The translations under genes and the position numbers were made by a program. From Paraspadella gotoi (Eukaryota; Animalia; Chaetognatha), in the NCBI GenBank assembly GCA_051294375.1, contig JBJCIZ010000722.1, forward strand, positions 22,327 through 41,654: 19,328 nt of DNA, read 5' to 3'. Below the pieces are notes generated by a model. The model had not been told where the DNA came from. It searched no databases and saw nothing but the letters and a program-made list of their open reading frames with translations. Shown here one piece after another: positions 1-19,328 of the stretch; the stretch's first letter is position 1; each line of letters starts with the position of its first letter.

Positions 1-719
1 AAAGACTACAGCATAGTGAAACTTATGTACGGAAATTTCTAAAAGTCAATTATGAACAACATACCATCACTAAACATTAATTTGTAAAAAAAAAATAATT
101 TTATGTTTTTTTAATTTGCGTAGTAAACTATATTTACATATAGTACTATCCTTATAAAATCGAAAAATTTCAAAATAGGCTTCTCTTAATTTTGAACGCA
201 GATTTGAATTCCTCGTCAAAAGTTGATAAAAGAAAATATAAATAATTTTTAAAAATTCTTTCATTAAGTGAATTAAAATTTAAAAAAAAACTCTATTTAA
301 TGTATAAAAAGTTTATTTTCAGATTAAAATATAGCTTTTTCTAATTTTTTACCTACTTAATGAAAAAATTTTTCAAAAAGAGTTGTATTTTTTTTTCTCT
401 TACTCAACACTATTTTATTAGACACAATCCACAATCTGCAAAAAAAAAAAATTCTTAGAAAACAACTGCAATTTTAAATTTTATAAGCATGTATATCAGA
501 TTAGTACTAGAATAAATATGCGCTCGGCCTACAGTTAAATCTAATGCTATAAATTACATTAAATGTTCATTAGTATGAATGGCTTGTTTGTTCTTCACTG
601 TTTATTAGAATCTTTAATGTAAAGTTAAATTTAGAAATTCTACTACGCTCCATACTAAAGACCAAGCCAAAAAAAAAACTGGCAAAAATGTATGACCTGC
701 ATATGTTGATATAATTTCT

Positions 720-880
720 CGTTTTTCTCCACCGTTGTTATTAGAATCGAGAACGTGTCCACGCCCCGTGTATGAAACCTCACGTCTACCGCCATCTTTG
801 AATCTTCACGACACGTCCACGTCGCTTTTTCTCTCTCGTCAGGCCCTTGAGCGCTTGTAGTTCTGTTCTTTACAGGCTAA
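720..880 (+). promoter_or_regulatory. Possible promoter/first-exon region of the Zn-finger gene
   Basis: Local CpG-rich patch in an AT-rich background, with several CACG(T) motifs and a YY1/Pho-like CCGCCATCTT at 789-798. It is followed by a pyrimidine-rich intron-like tract (~880-1018). Confidence 0.3.
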
Positions 881-1497: not shown

Positions 1498-2944
1498 ATG
1501 TCTTTCCCAGACGGGAGGTCGATGACAGTTGATTCCGCAAAAGGTTCCTTGACGAGTGAAGAGTGTGTTAAAAAAATGTTTTCTTCAGCTCTTTCTCTTT
1601 CCCGAGCGGGTGAGCGAGAAGGAGAAAGAGTCTTAATTAATCGTATAAATTCAATTATTGATCAAATTAGTGCGAACAAGCAGGAAGCCGATGCTTTGAA
1701 AGCACAAATCAACTTAAATTTACTAGATAACGACGATCTAAATAAGTCTGTTTTAATAAATCTACATTTGGTTAAAGCAATCGGCTTCCCGACTTACGAG
1801 TCGCTCATAGCCTTCATTCGTGAGGGAAAACAAAAACAATCTAACTTACCTCGGAAGAAGGGGAAATCTTCTATTTTCTATCCCCTATCTTTAACCCCCA
1901 CTTATTTCTTAAGCCTTTTGCAGGCTAATCCCCAGCTTGGGAGGCATGAGAATTCCAGATTTAAAATTATTCTTAAGGAATTTTTAAAGGCGGAACCCTT
2001 ACTAGTTTCTGAATCCACCCATCAATTAGTGCAAATCAGAGATTTTGCAAGGAGGAATGCGACTCATTTCCTAAAACATAAACCAAAAACTCTGGCGTTA
2101 GCCGAAATTTTTAGTTGCACGCCGACTGGAACTCGAAACGTTCCCGCAGCTTCGGCAGAACAAGTAATTAAAAAAATCGGTAATGCCAAGAAAGGGGTTC
2201 ATTACAATTTAATTACTAACGAAGATAAGATAGGGGTAACATATTCTTGTTTCCACTGTCCCTCTGCGGCTCAGCTTAGTGAAGATGCAAAGAAAAAGTG
2301 TTCATTTGAGTTCACTCCAGATGCTCTCGCTTCGTTCAATACCTTACGCTCACAAGTCCTTGAAAATCCCGAAGAAGTGAATGATCATTTTCTGATGAAC
2401 CATTCACCTCACGGGAGATTTAATGACCTGAGCGGTGGTATTTCGAAAAAGAAGCAATCTTCAGCAGCAAAAACTGAACACGGTTTTCTTTTGATTTGTG
2501 GTCGTTGTAGTTTATATCCCGAGAAACACCGTTCTGTATCTGTCACCTGCTGCATCTCCTGTTTGCATCTCCATAGTTTGCTGTTACATACAAAAGAGGA
2601 TCGTTTTTTGTCACTTTACCAACAGCTTAAAACAGACTTTTTTTATGACACTGTTAAGAGCGATATATGTGAGAGCTATTTCTTGATTAGGTGCGATATA
2701 TGTCTCTCTCTCTTTAATAATAAGGCTGAAAGGGATAAACACACAGTCAATGTCTGCGTTCCAAGGATGGTCAGTAGCGCTTATTTTTACGGCAATCCTT
2801 ACATTTTCGGGCGGCCATACGAATCTAAAGTTTCTTTAGAGGCGAAGCAGGAAAAGGAGAACCAAATCTTGGCCAAACAGATTAAATTGTTTCTAGCTAA
2901 GATTAATTCCAAATCCACATACACCCAGATTCCCAACCTATCCA
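1498..2944 (+). CDS. Cys/His-rich putative zinc-finger protein (>480 aa), 3' end lost in assembly gap
   Basis: Long stop-free ORF with CFHC...HFLMNH, CGRC...CCISCLHLHSLLLH and CDICLSLFNNKAERDKHTVNVC (C2HC-like) and a basic PRKKGK patch. It runs into Ns at 2945, so the track's end at 3015 is not reliable. Confidence 0.75.
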
Positions 2945-2969
2945 NNNNNNNNNNNNNNNNNNNNNNNNN
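2945..2969. other. Assembly gap (25 N)
   Basis: Run of N; the right flank starts in a GA repeat. Confidence 0.99.
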
Positions 2970-4031
2970 AGAGAGAGATAAAGTGTCTTTTGGTTTGAGA
3001 GGGAGAGAGGGATAGTATAGGGCTTACGCAATCGGGAGAATAATGGAGTAGCCGAGCTGAGAGATGAAAGGGATGTACGTAGGGGATGGTAAAGAGGAGA
3101 GAGAGAGAAAAGGAACGCATAAGGGCGGCATAATGAGAAGAAGAGTGAGAGTATCTAGGGGGGCCGAGACGGTTGACTGAGTTTTATCATAATAGAGGAA
3201 GTAAGGAGGATATACAGGAAGAAGGTGAAGTGGTAAGATGAGTAAAGTATAAGAAGGTTATACATCTTATCATATATTATAATAATTATGATTATTATAT
3301 ATATATATGATCCATTACACTGTGACGTGTTTGAGATATGTTCGTCTATGACTCACGCTATAAGCGGGTTTTTTTTTTAAGACGGATTCAGAGTGGTCAT
3401 AGCGAGTACCTATTCGTTCTATTCCACGTTCTCTTTGTCCCTATCCTTTCTGTCCTTGTCCTTTATCCTTTCGGGTCCTTCCTTTACTCTGCCTGTCACA
3501 ATCTTGCGATGCCTTTCTTTTTTCGAATTTCTCTTATACTTCCTCCCCTTTGCTATTTGATCCATAATCCTTTCTTCCTATCGGTTTAGACTGATCAAAT
3601 TCATCATCTTTTTCTGTCTTCCTCATTTTTATACTTTTTTTCATTTCGTCTCTTCCTCTGCGTTCCTATTCTTTTCCTTTCTGTTCCCTTTTCCTCAGCT
3701 GCTTTTTTTCTCAAGCCGCTTTTTTTTTCCTTTCTTACTTCCTTTCCCTAAATTCCCCCACTAAAAACTTTTGCTTTTATTTCGCTATATTAAGGCCGAC
3801 ATTCCTTAGTCTGAATCTCTTTTTGTTTTCTTTTATCTTTTCCGCCCCTTTCTTACCTCCTCTCCTCCCTATTCCTTTTGAGATTCACGGCGTCTCTGTC
3901 CTCTGGTCTTTTCCGTTTGTTATCCTCTCTTAACAGCTGTGGTTTTGATGAAGAACTGGAGTGAGGATGATTAGTTCTTGTGAAGATGTTTGAGAAGGAC
4001 TTAGGACTGATTAGTATGATTGAATTTATGC

Positions 4032-4113
4032 TTAGGGTTTAAGGTTAGGGTTAGGACTGAGGTTAGGTTAAGGTAGGAGGGTTGAGGGTTAAGGTTGAGG
4101 TCAAGGTTAGGGG
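4032..4113 (+). repeat. Degenerate telomere-like TTAGG/TTAGGG tract
   Basis: TTAGGG at 4032, 4045 and 4107 and TTAGG at 4051 and 4063, interspersed with TTAAGG/TTGAGG variants. Confidence 0.55.
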
Positions 4114-4670
4114 TTTGTTGTTGGGTTTTGGGTAAAAATCGTCCTTTTGTCAATGCTGGTTTTCGTGAAATTGATTGGCTTCACCATGTAATGGCCATCA
4201 ATTGCTCGATAACGATAGGTTTTGAACGTGGACAAAATCCTGCGCGTCCAACTTTTATCCTCGTAAGGCATCGATCCGCTCTTTTTCTTCCTCTCTGTCC
4301 TCCGCTATCGGTGGCGCTTATGCATCCGAAGGAAGTCTCTGGTGATGGATGCCTCTTCTTCCTCCTTCCGTCCTCGTAACAAAAAAGACACTTCACAATT
4401 GAAAAAAAGGAAAAGGGTCAGAGTGATCTACTCTGATTCAGATTCGAATTCTGAGTAAAAAATTTGTTATGTTTATTATTTTATATATATATGTAAGTTG
4501 TTGCTCGTAATTCAACAAATACAAATGTATATTGTAATATATATGGTAATCTGTTACTTCTTTTTTTGATTGTTTTTTTCCGCTAAAGGCAAATTAAAAC
4601 TTATTAGCAAAGAGACTAAAGACAAAAGACTTTAAAAAAAAATAAATAAAATAAAGTGACTCGTGAGACG

Positions 4671-5464
4671 ATGGCAGATGCGAGTAGTGACCCCGACGAT
4701 AAGGCAGCAGTGAAGAAGGTCGTTTGTCTCCGCGCTGTCCTGCGCTTTCTTCATGATCATTATCGCCGCAAGCAAAAAGTATCAGCTCGTGAGTTGGAGC
4801 GAGATCTGATGGAGCAGGAGAAAGAGGCCTTTGAAGAGTGTGGCGGCAGGTTAATGCCGCTCGATCAATGGTGAGATTAAATAAATAAACGTATGACGAA
4901 TATGAATGAGTGAATGAATAAATAAATAAATGATATACATTTTAAATAATGTGTTATTTATACATATATAAAACATTTATCAGGTGCCTACATCGAGCGG
5001 CCTTCGTGCGAACGATGGAGGGGAGCAGTGACGATGTTCTTGGTCCTTTCAAGAACTATGTTGCCAAACTTGCAGCCGTGTAAGAATTTCTTATAAATGA
5101 GATAAAGAAATATAGATGCATATCAATTATACATACTTAGTACCGAGTACTAATATATTGATTTTTTTTTTTTTTTTTGGTTAACAGGATCCGGGTCGCC
5201 GACAGGTCATGTTCCGACAAGTTCAAACCCAGATACGCACACCACATCGTTGAAGGTCGTCACTCCAGGGAACCCGACAAAATCCTCAGCAAGGGGGGAG
5301 TGATTAAGCATCGCGTCTTTATCGAACTGCCTCGCGAAATGGACAGTGATGCAGATGAAGACGAAGACGAAAAAGATTACGTTCATTCCCACCCTCCCAT
5401 TTACCTTGCAAAGGGGGAAGATCCTTTCGCTGTCTATAAAAGACAGAAATATAAACAATTTTGA
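4671..5464 (+). CDS. Unknown-family paralog A, ~190 aa, 3 exons (4671-4870, 4984-5079, 5188-5464)
   Basis: GT-AG introns 4871-4983 and 5080-5187 (both phase 2) join in frame: KKVVCLRAVLRFL...EECGGRLMPLDQWCLHRAAFVRT...AAVIRVADRS...HHIVEGRHSREPDKI. Aligns by eye to paralogs B and C across the junctions. Confidence 0.88.
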
Positions 5465-5550
5465 CCATTTAAATATTGATTTTATGTATTTTGTAAAACG
5501 TTTCTTTTGTAAATATGTTTCTTTCATTTTGGATTACAAATTCACATATT

Positions 5551-5557
5551 CTCTCCC

Positions 5558-5589
<32 letters not shown>

Positions 5590-5631
5590 ATTTTACACTT
5601 AAAATCTCGTTAATTAAATTCGTATTCAATT

Positions 5632-5671
<40 letters not shown>

Positions 5672-5720
5672 TATTTTATTTTACACTTAAAATCTCGTTA
5701 ATTAAATTCATATTCAAATT

Positions 5721-5773
<53 letters not shown>

Positions 5774-5940
5774 ATTTTACACTTAAAATCTCGTTAAATA
5801 AATTCATATTCAAATTCAATTATCTCTCTCTCTCTCTCTCTCTTTCAATCTCTCTCTCAACTCTCTCTCTCTCTCTCTCTCTCTCCTCTCTTATTTTCTT
5901 TTACACTTAAAATCTCGTTAAATAAATTCATATTCAAATT

Positions 5941-5977
<37 letters not shown>

Positions 5978-6020
5978 ATTTTACACTTAAAATCTCGTTA
6001 AATAAATTCATATTCAAATT

Positions 6021-6057
<37 letters not shown>

Positions 6058-6068
6058 AATCTCTCTCT

Positions 6069-6108
<40 letters not shown>

Positions 6109-6151
6109 CTTTTACACTTAAAATCTCGTTAAATAAATTCATATTCAAATT

Positions 6152-6203
<52 letters not shown>

Positions 6204-6214
6204 AATCTCTCTCT

Positions 6215-6261
<47 letters not shown>

Positions 6262-6401
6262 CTTTTACACTTAAAATCTCGTTAAATAAATTCATATTCA
6301 AATTCAAATCTCTCTCTCTCTCTCTCAATCTCTTTCTCTCTCTCTCTCTCTCTCTCAAATTCAAATCTCTCTCTCTCTCTCTCAATCTCTCTGTCTCTCA
6401 A

Positions 6402-6445
<44 letters not shown>
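5551..6445. repeat. Compound tandem repeat: seven ~55-bp units separated by variable (CT)n tracts
   Basis: Unit TTATTTTATTTTACACTTAAAATCTCGTTAAATAAATTCATATTCAAATTCAAAT begins near 5583, 5671, 5767, 5891, 5971, 6102 and 6256, each flanked by CT microsatellite. Confidence 0.95.
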
Positions 6446-6448
<3 letters not shown>

Positions 6449-6523
6449 CTATTATTATATCATACCTTGTTAATAAAATGTTTTTGAATTAAAAGAAACC
6501 TAAAAAAAAACGATCGTAAAACA

Positions 6524-7389
6524 ATGGCAGAAAAAGGACTCATTGACTGGGCTAAGTTGAAGGCAGAAAGACGAAAGGATAAAAAAAATCACTCCCAAAA
6601 AGACCGTTTGCCTTCGAGGAGTGATTTTTTTCATGCAGTTTATCAAAAATGCAGCGGAGGGCGTGGTACGAATGACGAATCAAGACCTCGAAACCCGGAT
6701 TCTTGAAAAAGAATCACTAGGTTTTGACGAGTTAGGCGGCGCGAGACTACCAGTGAGTGCGTTTTAACCAGAAATATAAAATTAAAAAAGCTAATCATTG
6801 TTTAAATCTATTCACTATCATTTTATCGACTTATAATAATTTTCCTCCCTCCCCTTTTCTTTAAATTTGTCCTAGTTACATCAATGGTGTCTCCATCGTG
6901 CGACATGGTTCGCGACTCACCGAAAGAAAGCCAACGATTTGGAAGAGTTCCGGATTTACGTGCTACATCTGCTTGACATGTAAGTCAATTCTTTGTGATT
7001 GTTTATTTCTTTGTTATTTCTATATCACCTCTCTATCATCTCTCTCACCAATCCGCTTCTGTTTCATATTTTCTCGTATTTTAACCCCTTACTTCTACCC
7101 CTCCCCTCACCTTAGTCTCACAGAAGTAGACGAAGAGTCCAACCTCACCCTCGCACATGCAGAATACCACTTCATACGTGATGGGCGAGAGGAACGATAC
7201 CCCAATCTCATCGCGACCAACATGGGAACAGTCATGAAAAAACAATCTTTTGCTATTGAAGACAAGCGGAATGGTGAAATAAGATTTGGAACTGTTTACG
7301 TTAGAGATGAGGATGATAGAAAAGCGGAAAGTGAAAGAAAGGCTCTCCAAGAAGATCAATATAATTTTTCTTTAAATAACTTTAAATGA
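6524..7389 (+). CDS. Unknown-family paralog B, ~201 aa if a 1-nt frameshift in the A8 run (6581-6588) is corrected; 3 exons (6524-6752, 6876-6979, 7116-7389); possibly a pseudogene
   Basis: The shifted frame reads ITPKKTVCLRGVIFFM...DLETRILEKESLGFDELGGARLP|LHQWCLHRATWFAT...LLDI|LTEVDEES...HFIRDGREERYPNLI. GT-AG introns at 6753-6875 (phase 0) and 6980-7115 (phase 2). Clear similarity to A and C. Confidence 0.82.
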
Positions 7390-8049
7390 TTCGATGATTA
7401 TTAGCTTGTTGCACTGAAGCTTTTAAATATTTATTAAAATATAATAAATGACCTAAAAAAAATTTAAAAAATCTTATTTTTTAAGAACGAATTCCTATAA
7501 AGCTTAAAAAGTTAAATGAAAGTTAGTACTACAATTTTGTTTCAATTTTGACAATAAATTAGTTAAAAATAGAAAAAACCTTAAAAAGCATTATCATTAT
7601 TATCTTTGGCTAGGTTTTATAGTTTTTTTAAATTTTCATTAATAAAACAAAAAAATTAGAAAGTTGAATTAATAACCTTTATTTAACTTTTAAAGCTCGA
7701 TCAAAATCTATTAAAAAAATTTTTAACTTTCTATAATAATAAAATAATCTTTAAATGCTTCCGTGTGCTTATTAATAAGCTAAATTTTAAAAATTATTTT
7801 TATTTTCATATTCTCTAACCATTATTCATTTGAAAGAACTTATAATTTTCAACCTGTTCCGGTCAATATATATTCATATACAAATTTGGGAGAGGGTAGG
7901 CAGATTTATAGATTATTATTTCTCATTAATGTGTTTATAATTGTATAATTTGGTTACTTACATTTGAAATATATTTCGTTGATTCAATTTTTTTAATTTT
8001 TTATATTTTTGATGGAATAGAGGAAATCCAAAAAACAAAAACAAGAGAT

Positions 8050-8737
8050 ATGAGCAGTGAAAAAGAAAAGAAAAAACCTCCTAGTAAAACTGTATGTCTT
8101 TTTGCTGTATTAAAACTCTTACGTGACTGCTCCAATGAGATTACTAATCATGATCTTGAGAACAAACTCATTCGACTCGAGAAGACGGGTTTCCCTGAAG
8201 TCGGTGGTGAAAGACTTCAAAGATCAGATTTCGCCCTTTTACGAGCCAGCTTCTTCCGCACAAGGGCTCGTAGAGCTTCGGAGTTGCCTCTCTTCATGCA
8301 GCATATTCAACATGTATGGAAAATGTTAGTAACAATTTCTTTTCTCTCTCTCTCTCTCTCCTCTCTCCTCCCTCCTCCCTCCAAGCTTCTTTTCTCTGAA
8401 TAAAATATCAATTAACAACTATTTTGCTTACAATGAATTTTTTTTTATTTACTATTTATTACATTTCAGCATTCGTGAGGCTGACGATCGTTCCCGTTCG
8501 GAGGATGAAAGGGCAGAGGAAATTCGACACATCTCTGAAGGTTTTGAAAAACGTCACCCACCCGAAATCATTGGAATAGATGGAGTAGTCATGGAACGTT
8601 GCACAGTACTTAAATATAATATTGACTCAAAAAACTCAGATCTATCAGATTATTATAGTTTTGTTGAAGTGTATTCTCCTAAAGGAGAAAATGTTTTTTA
8701 TTCATTGAAAAAACAGGACGCTATGCTTAAAAATTGA
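8050..8737 (+). CDS. Unknown-family paralog C, ~180 aa, 2 exons (8050-8324, 8470-8737)
   Basis: SKTVCLFAVLKLL...DLENKLIRLEKTGFPEVGGERL...LLRASFFRT; phase-2 GT-AG intron 8325-8469; then IIREADDRS...RHISEGFEKRHPPEIIGIDGVV...VYSPKGENVF, matching the C-terminal exon of A (IYLAKGEDPF). Confidence 0.88.
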
Positions 8738-8837
8738 TTTCGTTTTTTTTCATTAAATAATTATTAATCATTAACCTTAATAAATAAAACATGATTTTTT
8801 TTAAAAAAAAAGGGAAAATTTTATATTAATTGTAACA

Positions 8838-9221
8838 ATGGATAATTCCCTGAGTAACGATGCTGATTCTTCTGATGAAGAAAATGAACTAATCAACCAA
8901 CTTTTAATATCCCCACCGTTGGAGGAAATAAATGAAAATACATTAAAAATTACTAGTTATTTAACAAACGACATGTTTTCTGGTATCAGTTCGAAAAAAA
9001 TTTTTTTTCGAGAAATTCAAGAGCGAGAGAAGCGACTATTATTAGAAACCGAATTAATATGTTATCTTTCTCATGTTCAAAATTACCTTCGCCAACTCTT
9101 GCGGCCAAGAGACGAACAACACCATCCACTTCGTTATTTGGTCTGGCTCGCCACAGGTTACTATTTGATAAAACTAATATTAATTATAATAAAATTCATA
9201 TTATTTATATTATCGTATTAC

Positions 9222-9272
<51 letters not shown>

Positions 9273-12200
9273 TTCTTTCTCTTACTCAACATACATATAA
9301 TAACCAACCTACCTATATAAATACTTAACTATTTTTTCTCTCTCCTTCAGAAATCGAATTCGGAAGAGCAACAGATTTGAGCGATAGAATCTCACACTGG
9401 TGTTCCTACAGGAACCAGCATTGGCTTTTGGATGTAACAGACCAGGTTCAAGAGTTCATTACAAATATGATTCAATCGTTTTTTGATTTTGTTGTAAATC
9501 ACGTATCTTACATGGCAGAGTTAAGAGAAAGTGGATGGATTTACCTATTCCTAAAATCTGTACACGTTAGACATGTAGCAGCTCCCTCTACTAATAACTT
9601 AATACGCTATGGAAATAATTTAACTGAGAAAAGGTTATTTAATGAAGATTTACGTTCCATCTTTTTGAGGAATGTATATGATACAAGTAACTATATTTTG
9701 ACCAATGAAAAAATGAATTTATGCGTTTTATTTGGAATAATGCTCAGTTTAGAAAATAAATTCGGTGAGGAACATCGTTTGAGTAGAATACCTAAGAAAT
9801 ATGCAAGAGAAATTGTCTCAGCAATTGAAACTGGTGACTTGATAAGCCTAGACAATGATGGACTACACGTCAATGACTTTTTAAAACTTGAAAAACTCAA
9901 TTCACCCATACCAAATTCTTTAATTAAATTTTACCCTGAATTAGCTTGTTTTCAGGGGTTATCACTTAACCTGTTTAAAATCAGAAAGGCGGTTGATTTT
10001 AAAGCTTATTCAATCTTTCCAATCGCGTTAAGTTCTCATCACAATGACGATAGAAATTATCACCAAGTTGATCTATTGATTGACTCACCAGACATCAGGC
10101 CATCGGATGAGGGCGACCTTACTGTAGATTATAACGAAAGAGAACATATTCTGTACATTTCCGACCTTGCAAGGTTATTAACAACGTTTCGATCCGTGAC
10201 TGAAAGAAAATTCAATACAGATCGTCTTAAGCATATTTGTCGTGCTTGCATTAATTTATTTGCAGATGAACAGGCTTATTTTAATCACACCCAACTTTGT
10301 AAGGCATTTTCAGCTGGGCAAGGCCGTCGCGAGGCTTCCAATAAAACAGTTCATGTAACACATATAGAAAATTCATGGACTGGAGAATTGGAAAAAAATG
10401 TTCTTAAATTCGAAAGAAGAATGTTGTATAAAAAAATTAAACCGCTATTTTTCTCCTGCATTGATTTTGAGTCCACCACTGTCACAGTGAATCACACTGA
10501 CACTGACACTCACAATGTAAAATCTAACTTAACGCCACTCCTAAAATCCGCAATTTCTGAGCAAAGACCGTTAGCTTATAGTTTGGTTCATAAGAGTCTG
10601 TATGAAAAAGATTTTCCCTTACCAAGAGAATTGAAAACTCCACGCTGTAAATTTTTAGATGAAAAGATACAAACAGAAAAAGATTTCTTTATTAAACTTC
10701 TTTTAACACTTAGAGACGATGCTTGGAAGTTACACCAGCATACACAAACTGTATTTAAGATGGATAAGGGAACTCCGACTTTAGAAGAATTGAGTTTGAA
10801 CGAAAAAATTAAATATGCCTTGCAAGATTTTTGTGATTTATGTGGCCGTAAATTTAATTCTAAGTCTAAAAATAAATATAGCGGAAAAGTATATACTTTA
10901 AAAAAAACGATTGATCATTCTCACATTGATTCAGGGAAAAAAAAAATGAGATTTTTAACATGCGCCGGATGTAATCTTAATCTTGTGGACTTTTTACCAT
11001 ATAAAATCGGACACACAATCTATGCTCATTTTGGGTCGCATTACGACGCCGTTTTCATGCTTTCAGGGATTTTAGAAGCAGCAACACATTGCACTAATGT
11101 ATCACACAATGTAATAGCTGACCCAATTTTTAAGCCCATAATAAAACAAGCCCCAAAAGTTTTATTCCGCGGTAATGAGAACACGCCTCTCTCTATTCGA
11201 TTTAAGTTTTCATGCCCTTATCCATCCATTTGTCCAAAATGTTCTTGTTCCAAAGGAGAAAGAGAGACTTTTTCAAGAATTAATGGTTATACACTAAAGT
11301 GCTTTTCTGACAGATATTTAATTATCTCTGATAGTTTTTTCATTATCAGTCATTCTCTTTCTAATATAATACATGATCTTAATGAAACAGCACACAAAAA
11401 TGCCACGCATATCAATGATGAAAATCACGCACTTACAGAAATTTTTTCATCGACTTACGAATTTGTTAAAAATTGTGGTTACCAAGACTCATTTTTTCAA
11501 TTTTTGATTCGTCAAAAAGTCGTCATGCCTTTTAAACTATTTACCAATTTTGAAACAATTCAAAATATTACAGAAATTCCGAGCATAGAAAGCTTCCACT
11601 CTGAGTTAAGTGGAAAAGATAAAATATCTCACGAACAGTATGAAGTTTTCAAAAAGGTTTGGAATGGATTAGGTGTTGATAATTTATTTGAAATGGTTTA
11701 TTTTTATGTCAATTTCGATTCATTGAACCTGATCGATTCACTTTCATATTATTTTGGATTTTTGCATACTGTCTGCGAATTTTATCCAGCAAATTTTTTG
11801 GTATAGTATATTTGGTATGATTTGAAGATAATAATAATAATAATAATAATATTTATCTGTTTCTAGACCATTTCAAGCCTGGCTCTTACATCTGTTTTAT
11901 TTCATGCAAAAAGTCCGACCCAACCAGACAAAAGAATCGAATTAGAAATGTTAGACGCTGAGACACATCAAATCTTTGAAAATAACTTGGTACAATTAAT
12001 CATTTTTGTTAAATTTTTAATAATAATAACGCATCATAATTCCATTACACCATTTCAGTTGGGAGGGTTTGCTGCTATATTTTCTTTTCTTGGAGAATAC
12101 GACTTTGATAGAGAAGAGGAAATAGCGACAGCTTCGTACGTGGATGCTAATGGTGAGTTAATAAGGTGACTTAACTTTAATATGTAATCTATTTAATATT

Positions 12201-14152
12201 CTAACTTGAACGAATTTTAATTTCAGTACTTAAAATATAGATGATCATTTCTTTTTATATAACTCTGTAAATACAAACTCCCTCTTTTTCCCCTACAAAA
12301 ACCAAAAAAGAAAAAAACAAAAGTCACCTTTTTATTGATAAAGAATTTTTAAAACAATATATATAATATTTTTTCTATCCTTTTGCTTAGGGCTATATCC
12401 CTTTTCTATGACGAATTTTTTGCCCTTTGACGGTTTTGAAATCCTTCGAAAAACGTCCCACCCAGAAGTTTTTAATTTTTTAAGTGAAAAGTTATTGTCA
12501 TGTGACGTTGACTATTTTCACGATGCTTTGATAAATAAGAACGTTGGGTATTTGTTTGTGGTAGTATGTCAAACAGATATAGATGACATAACTAAAAGCC
12601 TAAATTATGATTTATGTCAATTCCCAAACAAAACATTAGTAAAAAGTTACGAGCTCCACTCGGATCAAATTAAAGCTGCTTTAAAACTAGGACGTCGAAT
12701 TGATAAAGAAACTGGAAAGTTAGTTTCCACGGTTTACACTCAACCCACTGAAATCTCTGATTACGTTGAAAATCTTCTTTATATGATTCTTATTCATAAC
12801 ATAGGAGTTTCAAAAGTCCTTAAAATTGTGCGATTTAATTCGTATCGTTTTTTAGATGATTATATGCAATATTTGCAAGACCAAAGATCTAAAATGAGCT
12901 CAAAAATTTTAGGGAAGTGTGTAAAACAGCTTTCAAACGCTGTTTGTGGAAAATTCCATGAGAGGCGATCTAAGTATCTTAATTCATCAGTCTGTATAGG
13001 AAAAGAAAAGTTTTTAAAGGAAGTTAATAAAATTCATTTTTTCGATTTTCGAAAAATTTCTCAAGAAGCGGTGGTTGTCCTAAAGGACGGTGCCAGTAAT
13101 ATTGACAAATCTGTTCCACAAATAAGCTCAAGGATTTACTCTAATTCTAAACTATTTTTGTGGCGAAATTATTTCAACATTGCAGCTAATATAGCCAAAA
13201 TCGGTGACATTAATACTCGCCTGATGCTCACAGGTATATATTTGAAAGTAATTATTTGTGTAATTGTTTTATAATTAATTTATTAATCAATTTATTTATT
13301 ATAATTAGATACCGATAGTATGGTCTGCTCTTTCATTAAAACGAAGTCTGATTTAGAAAGAAAAGAATTGCATGATTTGCAATTATCAGATAAGCAAATT
13401 GCACTATCACTCAGTCTTACTGGAAGTAATTGGGGAAATATATATTTGGAAACTTTTGGTCCTTTGCTCGATTTTTCTTGTCTCAACAAGGTATTTGATT
13501 GTTTTGTCTTAAAATATAATTATTGTAAATATCATTAATTATAATATTATTAATATATATAATAGGATTCTTTTATATATCAATGTTTGATGACAAAAGA
13601 ACCTAAATTACTTCAAGTTCTGCTAAACTTTTTGAGTCAAACTGACAAAAATACCTGTGGACTTTTTAAGGATGAACTAGGCACACAAATTATCAAGGTT
13701 AATTCTAATATAATTATTTATATTAGTAATAATAATAATTAATAATAATAATAATAATCTATCTTTTTTAGACCGTCTTCGCTACTTCTGTTAAGCAATA
13801 CTCAATTTCTACTTATCCAAATAATCCGGACTTTCCCCTTAATAAATTAGGGGGAAATAAAGATGTCAAATTATCTGTCGCTAAATCTAAGGGAGTTAAA
13901 AGAAATGTATTTTTAAACAATATTACTACTGAGGATTACAGAAAGGCTGTAAGTACAGACGAACCGACTCGAAAGGTTACACAACACGGGATAAGAAGGC
14001 GAAACCAGAGGATCTTCATTGTGAAAGAAAAAAAAAAACTTCTCACTCGTTTCACATCCAAACGCTTATATCGTAACAAAGACAATAATAATAGATTTTT
14101 TTTTACACATCCCTTGTATTTAAAAAATGTTTTGTCAAGCGAGTCTTCATAA
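8838..14152 (+). CDS. polB: Protein-primed family B DNA polymerase (Maverick/Polinton/adintovirus type), ~1507 aa, 8 exons: 8838-9156, 9351-11800, 11867-11989, 12059-12152, 12391-13233, 13309-13490, 13566-13697, 13772-14152
   Basis: Seven GT-AG introns (194, 66, 69, 238, 75, 75, 74 nt) give one open frame. Ordered motifs: ESGW, NLCVLFG, HILYISDLARLL, CRAC..H..C, ExoI IDFES, ExoII HFGSHYD, ISDSF..SLS, QKVVMPF, ExoIII YVNFD, LGG, motif A YVDANGLYP, motif B KQLSNAVCGKF, motif C LTDTDS, GLFKDE, KQYS, KSKGVKR..ITTEDY. Confidence 0.95.
9226..9282. repeat. (CT)n microsatellite in pPolB intron 1 (similar tracts at ~915-970, 8343-8370, 19021-19059, 19222-19245)
   Basis: Direct inspection. Confidence 0.9.
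10832..10984 (+). other. Endonuclease VII-like (His-Me finger) module inserted in the pPolB exonuclease domain
   Basis: CDLC...IDHSHIDSG...RFLTCAGCNLNL matches the CxxC...DHxH..G..R...CxxCN pattern. It lies between ExoI (10463) and ExoII (~11042), as in many animal Polinton polymerases. Confidence 0.85.
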
Positions 14153-14263
14153 ATTATTGCTTTCTGTATTTTGTCTTTTCTTTCAGCAAGTTTTTTTAGT
14201 GCAAAAATAAATAAGTGACTAGAATATAAATAAGAAAAAAGGCAAATTTGAACTAGTAGTAGA

Positions 14264-16199
14264 ATGCCTGATGTTAATCTTACCCAAGATACAGCAGCTG
14301 TAGAAAAACGCTACGAAGATTTCTATAAATTGCCTCTTGATCAAGATTTATTGTCCACTGTGCGCTTGACACACGATCGCATCGCCATATTTGCAACTGA
14401 CGATAAGAACGAGCCCATCGTCGAAATCCGCCGTGTCGACAACGAAATCAACAGAAATTGGAAAGAGGTAAATAATTTCTCTTAGTTTTTCTGATAATTT
14501 TAAATTTCAGTTTTATTAATAATAATTAAACTTTCTTTTTTAGTCTGGTTTCGCCACAAACGACTGTCGTCGCTGTTGGGTCTTGCCTCTATGGCACCTC
14601 ATACTCTTGGCTAAGGAAGGTGCCTTTCAAATTCTACAGGTTAAATATTTTTTTTTTACTTTACATTTTAAACTTAGCTCTCTCTCTCTAACTTTTATTC
14701 ACCCCTCTCCCTTTTTTTAGATCGCCATTAACGAACTCAACAGGGAACTCAACGCCAACACTGAGCTTCGCATCGACTCCGATCGTGTCACGCAGATTTG
14801 TGAGGTAATATTAAAATGTGAATCCGAATAATCAAATCTGTTTCCTTTATTTTTTTCATTTTTTGTCTCACAGAAATACCTTATCCAAAAGTCGCGCGTG
14901 TCATCAAGCTCTTACGGTCTTGAACTTTGTCATGAACGTGAAAAACGGACACAATCAGGTATATAGTCATTGACAGCTCATGACCACTAGATACTTATTT
15001 CAACCCAACCCAATACCTACTCAGTAAAAAAACATAAAGATGGTCATCAATCACCTCGGCAACGTAAAAAAAAAAAAACTCTCAAACACAATTCTAAACC
15101 CAAGACTCGTTCCATTGCTACTGAGCACTTACTTGTCTTATCCACAGGCATTGTCCCAGCCGGTTATTTTGCGCAAATCCGCCGTATCGTAAACACCAAC
15201 AACAACGACGTTCAATTCGTTTCGCCTTTCCATCCTGGATCTCCTGGGATGCGTGCGCAGACACATATTTGGACTCGCCTATACCAGGAAAGACGCAACT
15301 AATAATAATAATAATAATAATAATAATAGTAATAATAATAGTAATAATTTATCTTAAGCATTTAAACTCTATTACATCTCGAAATACAAATTAAATAAAT
15401 ATTTTACTTAATATTTGTTTTTATTTTTTTACAGGCGATGTTTTGTTTGCCGTTTCCTGGTCGGCACACCTACGACGACTATAAGGAACATGAGGCTGAA
15501 TATCAGCAGGCTCAACTCCCACCCGCTGAGTCTGGTGATTGGTTTAACTACAGCGATTCAAGACGAACAAGATCCGAATCTTATGTCCCTCCAAAGTTTC
15601 GTCGAAACTTCTTCGGAGAGATGGCGACTCTGGCTCTCCAAGAGCACTTCGACGAGTGCCTTGACCCTGAAAGATGCGACACCTGCGAGAGCGGAGTTAC
15701 CGTTGAGATGATTGAAGATTGGGACGAGTAAGTTTTTTTGTTGCTCATATTAACTAAATAATTTCATTTCTTACATTATCATTTTCTACTACTCCATTAT
15801 ATCCTCACTCCTTCCTTTTTTCAGAAATCATCGTGGCGCGACGTTGTACAAGAAGTTCGAGGGTCGAACGGCGATGGATATCATCGTTGATGAGAAAAAA
15901 TGGACCGTGACCAAAGGTTCTTTCTTTTTATTTAGATTTTTTAAAAGATATTTTAAAAATTCAGTATTTTTATCCGTACTAATTGAACATATATTGTATT
16001 TTCAGTTCAATCCTCGAATCCCTCGCCTACAACCTCGTCGGCAAATGGTTCCAATCAGCTTCTTCCTTCACTGACACCGTCGGAAAGAATGCGCCGTCGT
16101 CTCACTGAAAGAAAAAGAAAGTCGGATGAGGAGCTTCTTTCCAGTAACCTCCCCGATTCTTCACGTTCAACGACCCAGCCGCTGTCTAACGGACGCTAA
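14264..16199 (+). CDS. Hypothetical protein ~395 aa, 8 exons (14264-14467, 14544-14639, 14721-14804, 14874-14958, 15148-15287, 15435-15727, 15825-15916, 16006-16199); possible tandem PC4-like ssDNA-binding protein
   Basis: Six GT-AG introns plus one inferred GA-AG intron (15288-15434) keep one frame. Two repeats resemble PC4 (PIVEIRR...WVLPLWHLILL; YFAQIRR...PGSPGMRAQTHIWTRL). These are followed by HxxxCxxxxxCxxC and a Ser-rich tail with RRRLTERKRK. Could instead be two genes split at TAA 15300-15302. Confidence 0.75.
15300..15347. repeat. (AAT)n microsatellite inside predicted intron (similar tracts at 11829-11850 and 13728-13758)
   Basis: Direct inspection; all three lie within predicted introns. 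Confidence 0.9.
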
Positions 16200-17066
16200 A
16201 ACGGACACCCGAAAACCTCGCCGTTTCGCCAGCTGACCTTGACAAAATTATGACATAATGACGTAACAAACGAACATAATACTTGACTTTCACAAATAAC
16301 TAACTTAAGGCTAGATTACTAAATTACTAATAACTAAATGACTAACTTTTATGGTCAGCTAGAGAAATAAAACGACTGACTGACTAACTATCAAAAACTA
16401 GCCTTTTTTCTATTTTATTTTTAGGGTATATATATATTCTATTTTACTTTTGCGGGATAACCATATTCTTTAAAAGCTTATTTTTCTTGGGTATTTTTTT
16501 CTTTTTTTCTTACCAATCAATTTATACTCAAATATCAATTTTTTAAACAAATACATTTGTAAATATTATAATAATATTACTTAAATGACGTTTACTGACT
16601 CATTATACAAGCGAGTAGTACTCTTTTTTTTTGCTTTGCTTTTTTTGGTGTTTAAATAGTTTATTACAAATTTTAAACAATTTAATTTTTATCAGTATCA
16701 TGCCATTTATTGTCTTTTTTATCCTACTCTGATCTAAATCAAAAAAATACAATAACAACAGTTTCCAGCAGTATATTTTGACTTAGACTGGTCTAGTGAT
16801 TGTCGTTCATTTTTTCTTATTTTGCAATTATTATCACACTTTTTTATCTGCTAATTGGTATCATTTTTATTCTCCTTGTTTTTAAAAAACATAATGGATT
16901 TGTTGTCATGCCGAAATCATAAGCTGAATCATTTAATATCTTATTATATGGATGAGACCCTTTTTAGATTTCCCACTCTTTTCAGTATAATTCCAGCCGA
17001 TTCCAACTATATACTTTAAGAGTGGTGGCAAAAGCAGTTGTCATTAGTTCTGTGAGTAGCGCCGAC

Positions 17067-17250
17067 GATTTTTAAAATTACTGAGTTTACGTTTACTTTG
17101 CTTTCCATGAACTAAATTTTAACCTTGTATCCTTTGTTTTTCTGGGAAAAAGTTTTTTAGCTGTAAATAATGCCAAAGATTTTTAAAATTACAGTTACAG
17201 TTCACATTTGCTTTTTTAAATTTTAACGTTGTATCCTTTGTTTTTTTCTG
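17067..17250 (+). repeat. Imperfect direct repeat pair (~75-80 bp)
   Basis: GATTTTTAAAATTAC...TTTGCTTT...TAAATTTTAAC.TTGTATCCTTTGTTTTT.CTG at 17067-17144 and 17178-17250. Confidence 0.75.
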
Positions 17251-17775
17251 AGTACTGTACTGTACTCATTACGAGTTTTGAATAAAGTTATTATCCTACC
17301 GATCACGTAACGAGATATTGATATTATACTGTAAAATTTTTTTTAGATTGCACTGTTTACATTTCTACTTTTCTTTCGGTTAACTGAATTTCAAAATTAT
17401 ATTTTTTTCCGGGAAAAAAAAATATTTTGTCTGTTTTAGATAACCATTGTCCTGTCGATCACATAACCATTTGTTTTTTTTGGGGAGGGGGGAAACAACA
17501 AAGAAAAATTTTTATTATCTACACGCGTCGTAGTTTTTTCCTACTTGTTTTTTTATAAACACACTGTAACAGTCTGTTACTTGTCTTATTGTAAATATAA
17601 ACGGGAAAATAAACATTTCAACATTTAACCAAAAGAGAGCAAAACTTTTTTGATTTAATCAATATGAATAAGAGATAGAGAAACATAAAACGAAATAGTA
17701 AATCAGCTCGGACATAAATAAATGATAGAAACAATATTATAAAACAAAAATGTGAAAAAAAAAGGCAAAAAAAAG

Positions 17776-18838
17776 CTACAAAGGTAGAAAAAAATTTTCA
17801 GAAGCTTTCTTGAGACGCTCCGAACGACGAGGCGGCAGGACAGGTGTAGGACTAACCACCTGATCATCCAGCAAAGAACTGTCGCCACCAGCGAACTCGT
17901 CCTCCTTCTCAACTTTCACACGTGAAAGAGTCGGTGAAACAATCTAGTTTTTTAAAGAATATAATATTACCATTTTTAAAAATATTACATCGTTTCAATA
18001 TACTTGATCAATTTAAATTTACCTCTTTTGGTTGTGTCTCCATCTCGTCACTAACTGGTGGTGACTCGGGCAACAGTGAGGGAATTGACGATGTTATGTC
18101 TGAAGACATAGGAAGGGGGTGTTGAATGGGTGGATGCGATGGACGGGCTGGCGGTGGACCACGAGATGGATGCCACGTTCGAATTGGGAGAAGCACCGCT
18201 CCATCTTCCCGGAAAAAACGGCAAAGCCGACGTCCACATTTTATCTATTTATTAATAAAAAATATATATATATGTGGGATTCGTTCCCGAATTCTTCCGA
18301 TCTCCAGACTCAGATGGAGTCTGATCCTCAATTGAGGCCACAAAGAACTATCTCATTATAAACTAATTTATATTAGAAACAAGTTCATACCTCGTTCTCT
18401 CGTTCTTTCATATCCTTATTCTTTTAACTTACCATACAACTCATACCGACGGCGCCGAGTGCAATTATAGCACAGACTCCGAAAACCTCTAAATTTGTCC
18501 ACCCGACATGAGACGATGTAGGCGACAATGTTGGTGACAATGGCGATGACGATAATGACAATGACCGTGACGTTGAAGTAATCGCTGACGTCGTGGCGAA
18601 GGATGATGATGTCGACGATGTAGATGGAGGGAGTGGATCGAGACCCAAAACAGTCCTCAAGCAGTCTAAAATAATAACATTTAATTTAAATTTCATTTTA
18701 TATAATTCAATGACAATAATTTCAATTAAACGTACTATCCCCAAACGTTAAAAAGATACATTGCATCTCAGCCTCATCCACATCCAACCCGCACGAGATG
18801 GCGTAAGCAACGCACTGTGAAGTTGATATAAGCGCCAT
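17776..18838 (-). CDS. Single-pass membrane protein ~241 aa, 4 exons (18838-18736, 18665-18433, 18244-18023, 17943-17776)
   Basis: GT-AG introns (phases 1, 0, 0) give a 4-Cys N-terminus (MALISTSQCVAYAISC...QC...NC), a Ser/Thr-rich stalk, hydrophobic VFGVCAIIALGAVGMSCMI, basic/Cys KCGRRLCRFFR, and a Pro-rich tail ending PRRSERLKKASENFFLPL*. Confidence 0.8.
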
Positions 18839-19328
18839 AATATTATGTTTACGATAGGAGAGATGCGTTCAATATCAAGCGTGCAAACGGACTACACAAA
18901 TTTTTCATCTTACAGTTTCGCCTACATAAAAAGCTCGCCACCACTGCAGCGCAGATACTCTTAACTTCTCTAACCACGACTTTCTTTTCTATCTCTCTAT
19001 CTGCTAAATAAAAAAACCACTCTTTCTCTCTCTCTCTCTCTCTTTCTCTCTTTCTCTCTGCATCACAAAAGGCTACAACAAGCTGCAGAAAAAAAATCCT
19101 TTGATCTTTTCCGATCTTTCCGATCATCCGATCTTTCATTTTATCAAAGTCTTAAAAAAATTGAAAACTGAAACTGAGGAATGAATTCAAGAATTGAAAA
19201 TAATTATATTCGCGCTCAGTTAGAGAGAGAGAGAGAGAGAGAGAGAAAGAAAATAATTTTAAAAAATCAGTTTTGTCTTTTTCCTCTCAAATTTAAAAAC
19301 TGTCCCAATTGGCACCTCTCTTTACTAC

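Follow-up and report, generated by a model that had tools for sequence, protein, structure and literature searches.

Intact vertebrate Mavericks carry eight intronless open reading frames (ORFs), terminal inverted repeats (TIRs) and target site duplications (TSDs) of 6 bp (PMC8097293), and nearly all animal contigs longer than 10 kb encode an integrase and FtsK alongside adenain and PolB (PMC8502044). In nematode Mavericks the core genes are intronless, a 2–5 kb region holds intron-containing cargo, and transcription was undetected (10.1101/2022.07.12.499685); dinoflagellate eupolintovirus proviruses bear introners (PMC12166617). Two classes of the polymerase pPolB and its exchange have been reported (10.1101/2023.08.22.554363), as have capsid-less and mosaic pPolB elements (PMC13215967, 10.64898/2026.10.13.758929), and Drosophila Vesanto virus is segmented, with segments of 3.3–5.8 kb bearing terminal repeats (PMC8363768). 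The vOTU domain of polintons likely frees their terminal protein, and adenovirids and bidnavirids carry this domain in an inactivated form (10.1101/2024.03.18.585575). Introns were not considered in a survey of 7,103 assemblies for endogenous double-stranded DNA viruses (10.1101/2025.04.19.649669). Here we describe a 19,328-nucleotide stretch (the window) of the chaetognath Paraspadella gotoi (GCA_051294375.1, contig JBJCIZ010000722.1, positions 22,327–41,654, forward strand), which contains a pPolB gene with predicted introns whose assignment to the Polinton/Maverick type is supported by its sequence. We read the window, with a little less than an even chance of being right, as an internal block of a chromosomal, low-copy element of the Polinton/Maverick lineage that belongs to an unnamed intron-rich clade and is larger than, or organised differently from, the known elements, its integrase and capsid module lying outside the window or being lost.

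After removal of seven predicted GT-AG introns, the pPolB frame (8838–14152, plus strand) was open over 1,507 amino acids. The spliced product aligned end to end with a Pinctada imbricata protein (P0194; 23% identity over 754 columns, E = 6e-25), and a profile comparison of the two gave a probability of 99.8 at E = 1.6e-27. Motifs Exo I–III and Pol A/B/C were present and colinear with known pPolB, two of the predicted junctions falling inside Pol motifs A and C. The product also has a predicted, possibly PRD1-like terminal-protein region at its N terminus, where a conserved strand-strand-helix-strand stretch with the SGW motif was seen, an OTU-like Cys/His pair and a C2H2 finger; the exonuclease contained an EndoVII-like insert. 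The OTU-like Cys/His pair, the finger, the exonuclease with its insert and the Pol motifs are colinear with those in pPolB of animal Polintons/Mavericks (adintoviruses). In the window polymerase this pair lies at residues 231 and 372 and aligns with the corresponding residues of P0194; at the vOTU positions of family alignment A1, Cys was invariant in 62 of 62 and His in 70 of 70 rows having a residue. The PDB match of the OTU fold was not significant (E = 1.8), and the domain name derives from position and from 10.1101/2024.03.18.585575. An AlphaFold model of exon 2 built from a 91-row alignment (predicted local distance difference test, pLDDT, of 86) gave 19 Foldseek matches at E ≤ 0.001 in BFVD, mostly labelled DNA polymerases and headed by bidna-like, adintovirus, MELD and adenovirus polymerases, and no significant match in the PDB. 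Pfam recognised no family in the polymerase exons, PF03175 included, and apart from a weak hint of endonuclease VII, Pfam and PHROGs gave nothing on the exons of the window. The intron-bearing pPolB proposed in a preliminary description of this DNA, made from the letters alone, was borne out by the open spliced frame and its colinearity with Maverick/Polinton-type pPolB. Such a gene would behave as a Polinton replication gene expressed via the host spliceosome. By analogy with the vOTU domain discussed in 10.1101/2024.03.18.585575, the OTU-like domain would cleave the N-terminal terminal protein off the polymerase, and the freed protein would, as in polintons, prime the copying of a linear form of the DNA from its ends.

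Relatives of the polymerase were sought with exon 2 as HMMER query against 1.84 billion 50%-identity representatives. Among these, 276 proteins were retrieved at E ≤ 0.001 and 76 at E ≤ 1e-30, counts in which N- and C-terminal pieces of one gene may figure twice, the relatives being fragments; the best 150 of the 276 were 27–43% identical to exon 2. Word-based searches with single polymerase exons found no homolog. None of the 30 relative clusters looked up had a named member, and their sources were ENA, Logan, JGI and 'merc', which we take to be a catalogue of transcripts from marine eukaryotes. Nine matches came from a profile search, the only named ones being Clytia and Pinctada proteins (20–21% identity), and the Pfam family PF03175 was found in three of nine relatives. 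P0194 and the Clytia hemisphaerica proteins P0191 and P0192 were identified by their motifs as Maverick-type pPolB and are the nearest named proteins, from which the window polymerase differs in its long stem and an identity of just 22–24%. For a FastTree tree (60 sequences, 390 columns, none dropped), those 53 of the 150 best relatives were admitted that span polymerase residues 230–600. The 56 family sequences stood apart from four canonical-type proteins with a support of 1.0 and a stem of 1.57, which supports the placement of the polymerase in a large unnamed group on a long stem from its named relatives. We found no published description of this clade in a literature search whose coverage excluded most subscription journals and bioRxiv supplements.

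A DNA pattern derived from the family matched 59 metagenome loci, six of which were relatives, on contigs of 1.6–3.5 kb; elsewhere it matched two viral and 34 prokaryote loci, with no relative among either. Splice ends, read by eye, were seen in five of the six relative loci, and four of the six contained 12 complete candidate introns (11 GT-AG and one GC-AG); L055 had single splice ends only and L029 was equivocal. Two intron positions were shared by L005 and L021, and a third, one base from one of these, by L020, L055 and L060. The window pPolB lacks these shared positions, and its own differ from them. Since most of the six relative loci carry splice ends, we conclude that introns are a trait of the clade, whose hosts we infer to be aquatic invertebrates. 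Four relatives came from one assembly, judged by contig name, as expected of mobile copies. In L060 (minus strand, oriented position 2938), the polymerase gene contains a candidate GC-AG intron and an in-frame stop. L020 carries at 3–758 (plus strand) a Lys/Glu-rich ORF of at least 251 amino acids that ends approximately 150 bp upstream of the start of that relative's polymerase.

The gene models of the window were built by hand from its sequence and checked by script, with introns taken as GT-AG. The features are as follows:

1498–2943, plus strand, g1: orphan Cys/His-rich (zinc-finger-like) ORF of at least 482 amino acids, intronless.
2945–2969: assembly gap of 25 N.
4671–5464, plus strand, paralog A (parA): 190 amino acids; exons 4671–4870, 4984–5079 and 5188–5464.
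5537–6445: tandem array of (CT)n-bearing 80–96 bp units, immediately upstream of parB.
6525–7389, plus strand, paralog B (parB): exons 6525–6752, 6876–6979 and 7116–7389.
7406–7860: AT-rich repeat of very high copy number, lying between parB and parC.
8050–8737, plus strand, paralog C (parC): 180 amino acids; exons 8050–8324 and 8470–8737.
8838–14152, plus strand, pPolB: 1,507 amino acids; exons 8838–9156, 9351–11800, 11867–11989, 12059–12152, 12391–13233, 13309–13490, 13566–13697 and 13772–14152.
14264–15302, plus strand, g6a: orphan of 207 amino acids; exons 14264–14467, 14544–14639, 14721–14804, 14874–14958 and 15148–15302.
15438–16199, plus strand, g6b: orphan of 191 amino acids; exons 15438–15727, 15825–15916 and 16006–16199.
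17776–18838, minus strand, g7: 233 amino acids; exons 18838–18760, 18665–18433, 18244–18023 and 17943–17776.

The gene order and orientation of the preliminary description held, with g1, the three paralogs, pPolB and gene 6 on the plus strand and the single-transmembrane g7, its convergent membrane protein, on the minus strand; its count of seven genes is less certain, as gene 6 may be two genes or g6b may be the 3' part of g6a. Of its 22 coding introns, 21 GT-AG introns were modelled (two each in parA, parB and g6b, one in parC, seven in pPolB, four in g6a and three in g7). The 22nd would join g6a to g6b, where an acceptor is present at 15434 and no good in-frame donor was found. The description of the genes as tightly packed was overstated: pPolB is indeed flanked by intergenic gaps of only about 100 bp (8737–8838 and 14152–14264), and elsewhere the genes are separated by 1.7 kb including the 25-N gap, the 0.9-kb tandem repeat, the 0.45-kb high-copy repeat and 1.6 kb before g7. 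Read-through is blocked in 20 of the 21 modelled introns by an in-frame stop or a length that is not a multiple of three; the only intron that can be read through (11990–12058 in pPolB) has no counterpart in the aligned relatives. The GC content of the introns was 0.08–0.37, versus 0.30–0.54 in the preceding exon. They are mutually dissimilar, AT-rich and of host type, with no recognisable repeats among them.

The integrated element proposed here would resemble dinoflagellate eupolintovirus proviruses in having spliceosomal introns within a Polinton-like element, although, unlike introners, the window's introns are nonrepetitive and of host type, and some intron positions are common to divergent relatives of the clade. 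Compared with intact vertebrate and nematode Mavericks, whose core genes are intronless (PMC8097293; 10.1101/2022.07.12.499685), pPolB has seven predicted introns. Nematode Mavericks are similar in holding intron-containing accessory genes; however, their core genes are present and without detected transcription, whereas in the window the polymerase is rich in introns and those neighbours that were tested are transcribed.

In agreement with the preliminary description, no integrase, FtsK/A32 ATPase, adenain or jelly-roll capsid was recognised in the window by six-frame motif and Pfam searches. The Walker A motif GxxxxGK[ST] was absent from all six frames and from the gene models, although an unmodelled gene may hide one split by an intron, and no rve integrase or adenain motif occurred in six frames. 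A Pfam search of 150 of the 155 ORFs of at least 45 amino acids gave no family above the cut-off, the other five being coding exons scanned separately or pure CT repeat. Neither a motif nor a Pfam match to a major or minor jelly-roll capsid or to the adenain protease was found in the window; because Pfam misses the polymerase too, the lack of capsid and protease genes is a less firm result than the lack of the ATPase. Unlike Mavericks, the window has no recognisable integrase, ATPase, protease, capsid or TIR. Because integrase and ATPase were sought and not found in the window, we did not file the locus as a Maverick. The canonical core genes were unrecognised across a gap-free stretch of 16.4 kb that has the polymerase in its middle; the non-core sequence on the two sides of the polymerase amounts to 5.9 kb and 5.2 kb.

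This arrangement bears on two further readings. The clade may truly have shed the integrase/jelly-roll module and be a capsid-less, protein-primed nuclear replicon, or a segment as in Vesanto virus, that has integrated here. Elements of this kind are in print (PMC8363768, PMC13215967), the long central stretch with no recognised core gene fits them, and the bidna-like polymerases among the best fold matches, with a polymerase apart from capsid genes, recall bidnaviruses and Vesanto virus. In sequence, however, the polymerase is closest to Maverick-type pPolB, and its OTU Cys/His residues are intact, whereas the domain is inactivated in bidnavirids (10.1101/2024.03.18.585575). Vesanto segments measure merely 3.3–5.8 kb and bear terminal repeats, in contrast to 16.4 kb of gap-free sequence lacking them, and neither introns nor chromosomal residence are described for these viruses in the accessible reports. 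The window shows no ends, and sequencing depth, a weak measure, gave no sign of amplification. We consider this reading quite unlikely. In the second reading, a Maverick of ordinary size acquired introns, and the window covers its cargo while its standard core genes lie just beyond; this would parallel the cargo region of nematode Mavericks (10.1101/2022.07.12.499685). Against it, five intron-bearing core genes would have to fit into the 9 kb or so that, at most, a 25-kb element leaves, and the non-core sequence extends on both sides of the polymerase, so that we regard it as improbable.

Transcription and copy number were approached through nine sequencing runs, drawn from three studies of one organism, in which the polymerase region is present. 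Four runs contained nearly all words of the region and may be the assembly source, two contained a share of 0.43 and three ≤0.10. Read contigs of four runs (X1, X2, X5 and X7) were placed on 6460–8329. The run records list none as RNA; X5 was taken as RNA because its contig is spliced. This 732-nt contig (study P2), spanning 6460–7435, skips exactly 6753–6875 and 6980–7115, the two parB introns, and confirms the splicing of both predicted parB introns in a sample from another study. A second X5 contig covers 8021–8324 and leaves the window at the parC donor 8324, parB and parC thus lying on separate contigs. No spliced joints were seen in the X1, X2 and X7 contigs over 6460–8329. The parB frame is broken in exon 1 of the window assembly, probably by an assembly error, because at the beginning of parB the contigs of three runs (X1, X2 and X5) show small indels relative to the window; a true pseudogene was rejected for the same disagreement. 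X1 and X2 each gave one contig over parB without substitutions, X7 (study P3) gave two short pieces, one without a difference and one with a single difference, and no diverged second copy was found over 6460–8329 at 80% likeness. The repeat at 7406–7860, by comparison, was represented by approximately 1,200–1,400 contigs per deep run and a summed depth of up to 3.8e5, versus 40–158 on the genes; it contains an imperfect inverted repeat (7501–7697) and is likely a host element. Low copy number, near identity across the samples of three studies and the inserted high-copy repeat indicate that the locus is probably chromosomal, nuclear and low-copy, with depth being a weak measure. A settled chromosomal locus fits better than the free linear form for which a read-depth check had been suggested.

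The same observations, together with the spliced transcripts, would be expected of a lone intron-bearing Polinton polymerase, stranded or kept by the host among lineage-specific host orphan genes, with no cassette at all. The lower GC content of the polymerase and the absence of homologs of its neighbours beside its relatives point in this direction too. Six or seven consecutive neighbours, none with a detectable homolog, are harder to reconcile with this explanation; the gaps of about 100 bp around the polymerase would be more element-like than host-like, and elsewhere the family includes paralogs and a broken copy. We judge it unlikely, although with an appreciable chance of being correct.

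The preferred reading, an internal block of an intron-rich Polinton/Maverick-lineage element, is favoured by the spliced X5 contigs, the inserted high-copy repeat, the introns in most relatives and the broken copy L060. Host RNA polymerase II and the spliceosome would yield a separate mRNA per gene, the three paralogs, gene 6 and the membrane protein would be accessory genes of the element, and introns and accessory genes would together push its length beyond 15–25 kb. Several results weigh against it. No TIR or TSD, for which the preliminary description had suggested looking, was found within the window. The coding GC content of the polymerase was 0.34, compared with 0.39–0.50 for its neighbours, and g1 lies beyond the assembly gap and is tied to the rest by the scaffold only. 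Homologs of the neighbours were found neither in Pfam, PHROGs, the PDB, the Atlas and IMG/VR nor in the fetched relative loci; sequence searches of the PDB returned nothing or zinc fingers alone, and the Atlas gave no usable match for paralog C or g1. Because no such homolog was found, the neighbours are tied to the polymerase by position alone, the six relative contigs being too short for a comparison of gene order. The ORF upstream of the polymerase in L020 is unrelated to the window's genes, paralog C included. Protein and DNA-pattern scans of IMG/VR found no family member, and the tree contains only four outgroup proteins, too few to place the clade. No read contig bridges 7435–7790, and low copy number with near identity across studies also fits a fixed host locus.

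Among the neighbours, the three paralogs announced in the preliminary description were established for every pair (z of approximately 33 versus 300 shuffles). They are colinear across the predicted junctions and share the position and phase of the last intron. The first introns of parA (4870/4871) and parB (6752/6753) are offset by approximately 11 nt in the alignment and differ in phase, and parC has none, a mismatch that suggests intron gain, loss or sliding in the tandem family. The paralogs were rejected as adenain, whose motifs are absent. The end of the tandem array at 5537–6445 and that of the spliced parB contig are no more than about 15 bp apart.

The g1 frame is intronless over 1,446 nt and continues into the assembly gap. 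It had only weak C2H2-like leads in the Atlas (score 0.89–0.92, low recognition), no match in Pfam, PHROGs or the PDB and no relative on viral contigs; as a capsid candidate it was rejected, being Cys/His-rich and devoid of the motifs. A short plus-strand ORF at 1020–1139, approximately 360 bp upstream of g1 and followed by a good donor at 1140, may be its first exon, and no strong acceptor in phase with this donor was found. For g6a, an alternative acceptor at 15024 would give 248 amino acids. The earlier suggestion that gene 6 encodes a single-stranded DNA-binding protein found no support, and a PC4 likeness of g6a was unsupported, as a profile of 50 bacterial PF02229 domains scored it at −1.4 bits (E = 0.76). 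The fold predicted for g6a exon 1 from the single sequence had low confidence and no fold match. The g7 product has a Ser/Thr-rich stretch, one predicted transmembrane helix (residues 87–105; Kyte-Doolittle 19-mer value of 2.36) and a Pro-rich tail.

No promoter motif common to the eight upstream regions was found. A possible eighth gene, absent from the preliminary description, lies on the minus strand just to the right of the gap, with a candidate exon at 3857–3955 (strong donor, score 9.3) and a 65-amino acid ORF at 4110–4304; degenerate TTAGGG-like repeats at 4030–4110 fall inside this region. An imperfect 64-nt inverted repeat at 225–399 in the AT-rich left end is possibly another host repeat resembling a miniature inverted-repeat transposable element, and two to three diverged direct repeats, approximately 105–111 bp apart, occur at 17050–17245 between g6b and g7. 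Some Mavericks terminate in AGTAGT. The window end at 19320–19328 resembles the reverse complement of this hexamer, has no matching arm in the window and may be due to chance.

What appears to be new, as judged from sequence comparison, is the membership of this polymerase in a large unnamed intron-bearing group. Polinton core genes have been described as intronless, and the clade here consists of diverse, intact, intron-split polymerases for which the window is the only long genomic context obtained. The clade might represent a widespread, undescribed group of DNA viruses or self-replicating elements, large and rich in introns, that inhabit aquatic invertebrates; in these, a Polinton-type polymerase would accompany a different and so far unrecognisable gene set, with the paralog family and the membrane protein among it, that replaces the integrase-ATPase-jelly-roll module, and introns would hide the elements from ORF-based virus mining; at present we hold this broader view to be unlikely, if conceivable. 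No member of the clade was found in IMG/VR, and it is unnamed in every cluster looked up, which suggests that part of the eukaryotic DNA-virus world is missed by current pipelines. The finding raises the question of whether the capsid and integrase module was kept or replaced in this lineage, or whether the polymerase was kept by the host.

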